Translations under genes and position numbers: made by a program | The notes under the pieces: model-generated | Database searches by the model: none | The model's input: the letters and a program-made list of their open reading frames with translations, nothing else | Told to the model about the DNA's origin: nothing | Part shown: positions 2,573 to 3,743 of the stretch, piece by piece | Position numbering within the stretch: position 1 is the stretch's first letter | How the letters are laid out: each line of letters begins with the position of its first letter | Virus record (IMG/VR): IMGVR_UViG_3300035507_000178 | Direction: 5' to 3' (one strand) | DNA: 22,368 bases | DNA from: a virus

Positions 2573-2606
2573 AAAAGAGGGCTTATATTTATAAGCCCTC
2601 TTTTTT
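2573..2606. terminator. Bidirectional intrinsic terminator (AAAA-GAGGGCTTAT-attt-ATAAGCCCTC-TTTTTT)
   Basis: 10-bp perfect stem at 2577-2586/2591-2600, flanked by an A-run on one side and a T-run on the other. It sits after the + strand tRNA cluster and at the stop codon of the minus-strand gene (2605-2607). Confidence 0.7.
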
Positions 2607-3690
2607 ATATTTGTCTATAAAAATCTAATAAATATTGAATTTCTTCTACAGTTTGTTTACATTCATCTAATGTATTATATATATCTGTGGTTATTCTTAT
2701 TGAAGATTCAGCATCACCAGGATCCATTCCACCAGCTTTAAATATGGTAATAAGTTCTGGTTCTCTTACTTTTGTCTTAGGAATTGGTCTTACACAAATT
2801 CCACCTCGTTTTTCTACAAAGCTTTCAGAACTACATGCGCTTCCAGTAGAAACACAAATATCTTTTTCAGAGAGTAAATTCTGTAATTCAGTACCATTCA
2901 TATACCAAAAGCTAATATTTACATTATTTGATGCTCGAAATTCTTTATCTGGACCATTTAAACGAGAATAAGGAATTTTTGTTAATTCATCAATTAAATA
3001 ATCTCTTAATAGGATATTATGTTTTTTATTCTCTTCTAAATTACTTAAATTTTTACGCAAAGCTACAGCCATTGCTAATGCTAATCCAGAGCAAGGTGTT
3101 CCACCTGTAACGTCACCGCCCCAAATAAGAGATCTTACCGGCAATAGTCTTCGATTAATAATTAAACATCCAATACCTCGAATTCCATTGAACTTGTGAG
3201 CTCCAAAAGCTAACAGGTCAATACTAGACTTTTTAAAATTAAATTCCATGTGACCAATACCAGCAGTACCATCGCAAAAAATTAAATCTTCTTCATGTTC
3301 TCTTTTTGGAATTTCATAAATTTCTCCGTAAATATTATTTACTAACATTTGAACATATCCATTTTTATCTGGATTGTCAACTGGCGAAAAGGCCATAATA
3401 GGTTTTAATACTGCACTATGTTCATATTCATTATAAATAATATTACAATTATTATCTCTAAGAATTTGAATTGCCCAGTTACAAGCCTCAGTTGCGCCAC
3501 TTACAAAAAATACCTCTTCAACATCACACCCTATATCCTCAGCAATCATTTGTCTTGCTTTTTCAAGATCTTTATTTGCTTTTATTCCAATTATATGAGT
3601 TGAGTGCGGATTTCCAAAATTACTATTTTGAAAAGCTTCAATCGCTTCTGGAAATGGTCGTGTTGTTGCATTATTATCTAAATATATCAT
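2605..3690 (-). CDS. Class V aminotransferase / cysteine desulfurase (NifS/IscS-like)
   Basis: N-terminus MIYLDNNATT, PLP-lysine context AFGAHKFNGIRGIG, and the active-site cysteine loop STGSACSS all match NifS/IscS hallmarks. It is the only long minus-strand gene in the window. Confidence 0.8.
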   Translation of the reverse strand: MIYLDNNATTRPFPEAIEAFQNSNFGNPHSTHIIGIKANKDLEKARQMIAEDIGCDVEEVFFVSGATEACNWAIQILRDNNCNIIYNEYEHSAVLKPIMAFSPVDNPDKNGYVQMLVNNIYGEIYEIPKREHEEDLIFCDGTAGIGHMEFNFKKSSIDLLAFGAHKFNGIRGIGCLIINRRLLPVRSLIWGGDVTGGTPCSGLALAMAVALRKNLSNLEENKKHNILLRDYLIDELTKIPYSRLNGPDKEFRASNNVNISFWYMNGTELQNLLSEKDICVSTGSACSSESFVEKRGGICVRPIPKTKVREPELITIFKAGGMDPGDAESSIRITTDIYNTLDECKQTVEEIQYLLDFYRQI

Positions 3691-3714
3691 TTTATTTAAC
3701 CCCCTTTTAAGTAC

Positions 3715-3743
3715 ATTATACCTTAATTTTTAAGTTATGTCAA
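3715..3743 (-). promoter_or_regulatory. Consensus sigma70 promoter on the minus strand: TTGACA (rc of 3738-3743), 17 nt, TATAAT (rc of 3715-3720)
   Basis: Both hexamers are perfect consensus with a 17-nt spacer. The promoter is positioned to drive the cysteine desulfurase gene and is distinct from the repeated + strand phage motif. Confidence 0.6.

Follow-up and report, generated by a model that had tools for sequence, protein, structure and literature searches.

A predicted short-form cysteine desulfurase carried as a promoter–gene–terminator cassette beside the tRNA genes of a large gut phage

Cysteine desulfurases are the entry point of sulfur trafficking to Fe-S clusters, thio-cofactors and thiolated tRNA. 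A gene for an enzyme of this class lies beside a cluster of tRNA genes in a stretch of 22,368 nucleotides from IMG/VR virus record IMGVR_UViG_3300035507_000178 (hereafter the window, meaning the whole stretch analysed). The source is a large, low-GC gut phage of about 176 kb. An earlier note, drawn from the sequence of the window, had singled out this gene as a NifS/IscS-type desulfurase with its own promoter and had connected it with thiolation of the neighbouring tRNAs. The gene product is found here to be a type I (NifS/IscS-like) cysteine desulfurase by all the sequence criteria tested, of a shortened form that recurs on phage contigs next to tRNA genes. From the sequence, it is rather probable that the locus is an autonomous cassette and that its product is an active desulfurase acting as a sulfur donor.

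Layout of the locus and its accessory cassette

The desulfurase gene is the lone long gene of the minus strand, as the earlier note had stated. All other minus-strand open reading frames (ORFs) of at least 100 residues are nested in plus-strand genes. The GC skew is positive throughout the window save between 2501 and 4000, where it takes values of -0.19 and -0.16, in agreement with a single gene of opposite orientation. The N-terminus of the protein, MIYLDNNATT, lines up with the start of all homologues.

The perfect sigma70-type promoter claimed for the gene was recovered (Table 1), with 24 nt between the end of its -10 hexamer and the ATG. By count alone, a perfect match of the -35 and -10 hexamers is a weak statistical surprise: 0.48 sites with at most one mismatch are expected by chance in the window, and at least one such site was present in 40 of 100 shuffles. 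The promoter is made credible by its position and by a promoter-like site (TTGATT-18-TGnTATAAT) found at the equivalent place in two homologous loci, L001 and L012, the desulfurases of which are 64–65% identical to that of the window. These two homologues use a TTGATT-type promoter; in front of the window gene, the TTGACA consensus is complete. A recurrent phage promoter-like element, TTGATT-17-TATAAT, mostly with the TG of an extended -10, occurs on the plus strand at 80-108, 932-960, 1014-1042, 3745-3773, 4130-4158 and 5813-5841, standing before small ORFs, tRNAs and early genes.

The desulfurase stop codon is separated by 33 nt from the end of the convergent tRNA-Cys gene (position 2571). 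The hairpin said to be common to the desulfurase and the tRNA cluster was found in this interval, with predicted folding energies of -19.4 kcal/mol on the plus strand (z = -4.9) and -19.9 kcal/mol on the minus strand (z = -5.3). Its T-run is better on the strand of the tRNAs, with six T, than on that of the desulfurase, with four T located within the stem.

Table 1. Features of the desulfurase locus, in window coordinates
Feature	Position	Strand	Remarks
Accessory cassette (terminator hairpin, desulfurase gene, promoter)	2572..3744	-	Present or absent as a unit; 1173 bp
Desulfurase coding sequence, predicted short-form type I cysteine desulfurase	2605..3690	-	361 aa; ATG start
Sigma70-type promoter, TTGACA-17-TATAAT	3715..3743	-	12/12 consensus match; sole 12/12 site in the promoter scan
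Shine-Dalgarno-like AAGGGGG	3700..3706	-	9 nt upstream of the ATG; read from the sequence
Codons of His165-Lys166, motif GAHKF	3193..3198	-	Pyridoxal phosphate (PLP) Schiff-base lysine; Lys166 aligned to Lys203 of 1ecx; invariant in 26 sequences
Codon of Cys286, motif STGSAC	2833..2835	-	Persulfide-forming catalytic cysteine; aligned to the catalytic Cys of 1ecx; invariant
Clade-specific basic insertion in the catalytic loop	2755..2823	-	18-23 aa; holds Cys299 (codon 2794-2796, motif GGIC)
Hairpin terminator between desulfurase stop codon and tRNA-Cys	2573..2604	both	Both strands folded; predicted energies
tRNA-Cys(GCA), convergent neighbour	2499..2571	+	Context only
Divergent phage promoter TTGATT-17-TATAAT with TG, back-to-back	3745..3773	+	Predicted to drive ORF 3807-4133; right edge of the cassette; kept in L258

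The limits of the unit are given by a closely related phage. IMGVR_UViG_3300043105_000140 (L258, 175.6 kb) aligns to window positions 1156-2571 and 3745-12338 with 91–94% nucleotide identity, and in place of window positions 2572-3744 it has 40 bp (7465-7504) that form part of a different small terminator hairpin, directly followed by the TTGATT promoter as in the window. Since such a close relative lacks exactly this segment, the gene can be considered a dispensable promoter–gene–terminator cassette. Set among conserved phage genes and equipped with a promoter and a terminator, the segment has the layout of an autonomous transcription unit of the 'moron' type.

The distribution of the gene is sporadic. 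IMG/VR has at least 463 relatives of the desulfurase, but the clade to which the window protein belongs was found there on five contigs, and only three of the 80 phages that have the neighbouring DUF2828 gene (at least 57% identity) carry a desulfurase within 8 kb of it. The same isolation on its strand, with a dedicated promoter and terminator, is found for the gene in relatives of 188–196 kb, where its neighbours are different; L001 and L012 have this layout. In a 151 kb relative (L008), the desulfurase gene is co-oriented with its neighbours and directly flanked by tRNA-Ile(TAT) and tRNA-Trp. Full-length desulfurases are encoded by other large phages on contigs of 133–140 kb (L089, 9995-11152; L085, 9998-11077). 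That of L089 is near a homologue of Thg1 (listed with the locus at 13846-14655) that falls in a BLAST cluster with the Thg1 of the window, and ORFs near that of L085 look by eye like S-adenosylmethionine (SAM) synthetase and DNA methyltransferases. Phage desulfurases appear to have been acquired more than once. A megablast search of known phages with the whole window gave no match. A tblastn search of known phages with the desulfurase gave at most 34% identity, many of the matches being judged host-derived contigs under phage names.

The L008 locus has further peculiarities. Its desulfurase gene (10001-11089) contains two in-frame TAG codons where homologues have Gln. A gene 1.7 kb downstream (12818-14011), for an SDF-family (DctA/SstT/GltP-like) transporter without specific match to cystine carriers, also has in-frame TAGs, and a tRNA with anticodon CTA is encoded in the locus (14405-14495). 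This suggests that TAG is recoded to Gln in this relative. The window's own desulfurase gene has no in-frame stops.

Enzyme class, catalytic residues and the short form

The search for the Aminotran_5 domain advised in the earlier note gave a match in Pfam (E = 1.2e-40, 140.1 bits against a gathering cut-off of 21.5). The best NCBIfam hidden Markov models (HMMs) are those of NifS (TIGR03402, 174 bits) and IscS (TIGR02006, 141.5 bits), followed by DndA, SufS and CsdA; the equivalog cut-offs are far above these scores, at 530.75 for NifS and 643.2 for IscS. The exact window protein had already been annotated automatically as 'cysteine desulfurase' by the Joint Genome Institute, so that neither the enzyme class nor the label of this gene is new. 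The best viral family is phrog_12787 of the PHROG database (function unknown; E = 4.1e-59, 201.6 bits, profile of 387 positions), the match being interrupted at a deletion in the large domain of the window protein. The catalogue thus already includes homologues from phages; neither a functional annotation nor a study of phrog_12787 was found.

The closest solved relative is the NifS-like protein of Thermotoga maritima (1ecx, E = 1.7e-39). The conserved Lys and Cys, on which the earlier note had made its class assignment depend, are both present: His91, Asp140, His165-Lys166, Thr198, Cys286 and Arg332 are invariant in an alignment of 26 sequences. By alignment and numbering that we take to be that of Escherichia coli IscS, they correspond to His104, Asp180, His205-Lys206, Thr243, Cys328 and Arg354. 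Strict conservation of the Lys, Arg, His and Cys is a trait of cysteine desulfurases (PMC8918507). As the catalytic residues are kept across relatives with 54–65% identity, the gene is considered to be under constraint.

An AlphaFold2 model of the window protein has a mean predicted local distance difference test (pLDDT) score of 86.4 and a predicted template modelling (TM) score of 0.87. It is poorly defined at the catalytic loop only, with pLDDT values below 50 at residues 285-299 and means of 47–72 for blocks of ten residues across 281-320, which implies a mobile loop. The top Foldseek matches are 1ecx, NFS1 and IscS, with TM-scores of 0.81–0.86. The fold and the profile matches thus uphold the NifS/IscS-type assignment. 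Type II desulfurases (SufS/CsdA) and selenocysteine lyase were considered and rejected: their HMMs gave 29–86 bits (35–86 bits for SufS and CsdA), and the structures of NifS, IscS and NFS1 all outrank those of selenocysteine lyase. This rejection concerns the enzyme class and not a preference for selenium or sulfur.

The window protein departs from cellular enzymes in several respects. The EHxA and NNxxG motifs are 28 residues apart, instead of 51 as in cellular homologues, which corresponds in the alignment to the absence of about 22 residues of the large domain, or one β-α unit. A short spacing of 24–34 residues is found in 71 of the 120 top protein clusters, and proteins of this kind are referred to as short forms. 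The GGG-QERG-R segment is shortened in them as well. Members of the window clade end 29 residues past Arg332, and the SP(L/I/Y/F) motif found in the tail of cellular NifS and IscS is missing from them. Deletion of residues 374-404 (given elsewhere in the same paper as 376-404) from E. coli IscS abolishes the binding of IscU (PMC2854127). With this tail missing, along with the segment of the large domain, the window protein is probably not an enzyme of IscU-coupled Fe-S assembly, and a non-scaffold acceptor is likelier. Three residues past the PLP-binding Asp, Ala143 of the window protein is shared by all 21 aligned sequences from phage contigs, whereas cellular homologues have Gln or Asn at this position. 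We take it to be that of IscS Gln183, which would be hydrogen-bonded to the PLP O3'.

These departures raise the question of whether the short forms still act as enzymes. A catalytically impaired decoy or regulator could bind host partners of sulfur trafficking, or form heterodimers with the host desulfurase, and thereby redirect the sulfur flux. The Ala in place of Gln/Asn, the shortened GGG-QERG-R segment and the lost β-α unit would fit such a protein, and a precedent is provided by the inactive IscS paralogue of Archaeoglobus fulgidus (PMC8918507). Against it, diverged phage lineages have all strictly kept the Lys, His, Asp, Cys and Arg, as expected of a working enzyme, and a decoy is regarded as very improbable. 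The A. fulgidus paralogue presumably lacks the PLP-binding Lys.

Within the short forms, the window clade is distinguished by the basic insertion in the catalytic loop. The spacing between the catalytic Cys and the Arg is 44–49 residues in all 17 scorable clade members (46 in the window protein), against 26 residues in 97 of 116 homologues. The insertion brings a second invariant cysteine, Cys299, 13 residues past Cys286 (C-x12-C), within the clade motif [GH]G[IL]C. When proteins were clustered at 50% identity, the window clade formed a single cluster (P0007), which matched with 475 bits in an exhaustive HMMER search of 1.84 billion representatives, the next match having 227 bits. The extended C-x12-C loop was absent from 147 further top representatives of this search, and by sequence it is confined to the narrow clade of the window.

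The best matches in 185,579 genomes of bacterial and archaeal species are ordinary NifS/IscS genes, mostly from Acidobacteriota, with only 30–36% identity. The window clade has therefore been seen only on viral or phage-sized contigs. For the same reason no donor can be named, and a recent capture from the host was rejected.

Association with tRNA genes and the fate of the sulfur

The short forms are consistently found beside tRNA genes. Among all the loci fetched, 54 of the 56 with a short form have a tRNA gene within 3.5 kb of the desulfurase, compared with 4 of the 32 with a long form. This co-location is found both in large phages (contigs of 83.5–196 kb) and in temperate ones (contigs of 37–88 kb). 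The short forms of temperate gut phages have 33–42% identity; their genes are preceded at 0.4–3.1 kb, on the same strand, by a cluster of two to four tRNA genes and followed by an integrase gene.

The earlier note had connected the gene with tRNA thiolation through the UAA and UGA anticodons of the window's tRNAs. That argument is not sound. Thiolation of the wobble uridine to 2-thiouridine (s2U34) belongs to the Glu, Gln and Lys tRNAs, and U34 of Leu-UAA and Ser-UGA carries non-thiolated groups of the xm5U/xo5U type. On another contig of the same phage (IMGVR_UViG_3300035499_000465, 83.5 kb of a genome of ~176 kb), which was surveyed to about 55 kb, at least 11 tRNAs are encoded. One of them is Gln-UUG, a substrate for s2U34.

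To the right of the cassette, the plus strand from 4239 to 22336 is a dense island of RNA/tRNA-repair and conflict genes. It encodes DUF2828/DUF7788, an 814-residue protein resembling the major vault protein, Thg1, an HD domain, an RlaP nucleotidyltransferase, three metallophosphoesterases, an RNase T-type exonuclease, cREC, an RNA ligase, YqeY, NADAR, an AAA_33 kinase and flotillin. This repertoire agrees with the RNA-repair set of jumbo phages reviewed in PMC7824862, a review that does not mention desulfurases. The surveyed ~55 kb of the other contig holds replication and lysis genes, for PIN-PhoH, an SH3-type endolysin, gyrase, RNase H, LigA, DnaB, primase, RecJ and a helicase, as well as a DUF5131 gene described below. 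A Firmicute host is hinted at by lysin domains of Gram-positive type, by extended -10 promoters and by the nearest cultured relatives of the DUF2828 gene, which are in Bacillus phages (42% identity).

The cassette would be transcribed from its own consensus promoter by the host RNA polymerase with sigma70/sigmA, and transcription would end at the hairpin ahead of the convergent tRNA-Cys gene. The product is expected, from its sequence and predicted fold, to be a minimal and catalytically complete type I PLP-dependent L-cysteine desulfurase. As in the family, Lys166 would carry the PLP with which L-cysteine forms an external aldimine, and Cys286, on the long mobile loop, would attack the substrate sulfur to yield L-alanine and the persulfide of Cys286. 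The favoured fate of this persulfide, held tentatively and by analogy, is direct passage to a host acceptor of the thiouridylase type (ThiI or MnmA-like), as type I desulfurases dedicated to handing sulfur to thiouridylases are known in Bacillus (NifZ and YrvO). The outcome would be a greater thiolation capacity for the many tRNAs brought by the phage. The additional basic loop of the window clade, with its Cys299, may let the persulfide reach further or serve as its relay. A bolder proposal is that the short forms are dedicated tRNA-thiolation donors travelling with phage tRNAs, and that the C286-x12-C299 loop is a built-in relay that replaces carriers of the TusA, SufE or rhodanese type and delivers straight to a thiouridylase–tRNA complex; this we consider improbable.

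Several observations weigh against hand-over to a thiouridylase by an active enzyme. Besides Ala143 and the scores below the equivalog cut-offs, the near-isogenic L258 does without the gene. Because L258 has the same tRNAs and repair genes, the desulfurase is not integral to the tRNA/repair module. The 54 loci amount to about two independent lineages, as the temperate groups share their integrase; accessory genes in general tend to accumulate in tRNA arrays and near integrases. The tRNA set of one temperate group, temperate-B (Thr-CGT, Gly-TCC, Met-CAT), is without an s2U34 substrate. Finally, partners were sought: neither a thiouridylase (ThiI, MnmA, TtcA) nor a sulfur carrier turned up in the 10 kb around each homologue or in the ~55 kb surveyed, TusA, rhodanese, IscU and SufE were not seen near any homologue, and the ~55 kb held no sulfur acceptor. 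When the neighbourhoods of 89 loci were clustered, the only neighbour common to short-form groups was the integrase of temperate phages, and Thg1 was shared with one long-form group.

The proposed link with tRNA thiolation thus stands in part: it is favoured by the co-location and by the repair island, and disfavoured by the lack of a thiouridylase in the regions searched and by L258. A role in tRNA thiolation is plausible, resting on co-location in about two lineages. The further idea that it bears on anticodon nucleases recognising modified wobble bases is speculation.

Other uses of the sulfur were weighed. One is Fe-S supply, in which the phage enzyme would feed the host Fe-S assembly and keep phage or host Fe-S enzymes, for example of the radical-SAM type, loaded after host shut-off. 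The best HMM is that of NifS, an Fe-S-dedicated type. A possible Fe-S client is encoded by the same phage about 50 kb away (L361, 17881-18729, at about 51.7–52.5 kb of the contig). This DUF5131 (Gp37/Gp68) protein has the motif C-x6-C-x2-C at its N-terminus and weakly matches 'radical SAM mobile pair protein A'. ORFs that read by eye as radical-SAM-like also lie a few kb from the long-form desulfurases of L085 and L089. However, the short forms are without the C-terminal tail on which IscU binding by E. coli IscS depends, and none of the loci has a gene for IscU, NifU, SufU or SufE in the vicinity. Moreover, Fe-S assembly in Bacillus-type Firmicutes relies on type II SufS-SufU and not on type I enzymes, a point that applies only if the host is of this type. 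Fe-S supply is judged unlikely.

A free-standing role would dispense with partners altogether. Turning over with cellular thiols, the enzyme could deplete cysteine and release alanine together with sulfide or low-molecular-weight persulfides, and so alter the redox state or stress tolerance of the host, as would suit a fitness 'moron' of the temperate relatives. The loss of partner-binding surface elements would fit, as would the sporadic and dispensable distribution, the SDF-family transporter gene downstream in L008, and the position of the gene in the integrase-proximal cargo region of temperate relatives, typical of lysogenic-conversion genes. Type I desulfurases are nevertheless slow without an acceptor, the L008 transporter is not specifically a cystine carrier by its matches, and the recurrent tRNA co-location would be left unexplained. 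We regard a free-standing generator as quite unlikely.

Donation of sulfur to phosphorothioation of the phage DNA backbone, as by DndA or SspA, was also considered. There is a partial match to the DndA HMM, SspA is likewise short (348 aa), and a Dam-like methyltransferase is encoded upstream in temperate relatives. The DndA score, however, is 131.5 bits against a cut-off of 480, and SspA matches residues 11-96 only (E = 1.8e-13); it retains the large-domain segment (Lys201) and the canonical spacing of 26 residues between Cys and Arg. No partner genes (dndBCDE, sspBCD) were found in any locus or in the ~55 kb surveyed. On the low score and the missing partners, identity with DndA or SspA was rejected, and a role in phosphorothioation is exceedingly improbable.

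Two observations on the tRNA cluster of the window are added here. A fifth tRNA was called by Rfam at 2368-2491 on the plus strand (35.7 bits, above the gathering score) that had been missed by ARAGORN. Over its 124 nt, the acceptor, D and T arms are normal, the variable arm is long and the anticodon loop is possibly that of GUA (Tyr), with about 42 extra nucleotides between the D arm and the anticodon stem; relatives have an intact tRNA-Tyr of 84 nt. By its sequence, this may be a tRNA-Tyr that is interrupted, intron-like or degenerate. Small basic or Cys-rich ORFs on the plus strand (122-490, 636-935, 1332-1658 and 2081-2287), for which no solid family match was found, alternate one by one with the tRNA genes.

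Three findings are new: a short-form family on phage contigs that consistently has phage tRNA genes at its side, the extended loop with its C-x12-C pattern in the narrow clade of the window, and a clean presence/absence polymorphism that constitutes a natural experiment. A literature search found no study of phage short-form desulfurases, of their placement by tRNA genes, of the extended loop or of the polymorphism, and a paper on viral organosulfur metabolism does not mention desulfurases. Stripped to the catalytic core and set beside phage tRNAs, the short forms offer a natural experiment on the surfaces needed for each acceptor. They suggest that phages may tune the sulfur-dependent modification of the tRNAs that they import, and the natural pair of phages with and without the cassette makes this idea directly testable. 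Should the gene only be one of general sulfur supply, it would be one more routine auxiliary metabolic gene.

Comparison with known desulfurase systems

The NifS-like protein of T. maritima (1ecx/1eg5), of the NifS type, is the best structural match to the window protein (TM-score 0.84, 29% identity). It has similar lysine and cysteine motifs, SAHKF and S(T/S)SAC, to be compared with GAHKF and STGSAC in the window protein, and it too has the long disordered loop of type I enzymes. The window protein differs by the loss of about 22 residues of the large domain and of the C-terminal tail, by the Ala in place of Gln/Asn, by the 18–23 additional residues of the loop and by the second Cys.

With E. 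coli IscS and human NFS1, the window protein shares the fold, the catalytic residues and the mobile Cys loop that delivers the persulfide to acceptors. In contrast to E. coli IscS, it is without the 374/376-404 tail (LSPLWE region) that serves IscU, and its gene lies outside any isc operon. The positions that we take to be those of IscS R112 and R116, mutation of which presumably lowers the binding of CyaY, IscX and ThiI, are not basic in the window protein. SspA and DndA are likewise stand-alone class-V desulfurases encoded on mobile or defence loci.

The pairs NifZ-ThiI and YrvO-MnmA of Bacillus subtilis, which form 4-thiouridine at position 8 (s4U8) and s2U34, respectively, differ in that nifZ and yrvO adjoin the gene of their thiouridylase, whereas the phage gene sits among tRNA genes with no such partner seen beside it. 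The window protein could not be assigned specifically to NifZ or YrvO by HMM. By analogy, these pairs provide the working model for the phage protein, that of a stand-alone type I enzyme that may hand over its sulfur directly, without the TusA-E carriers.

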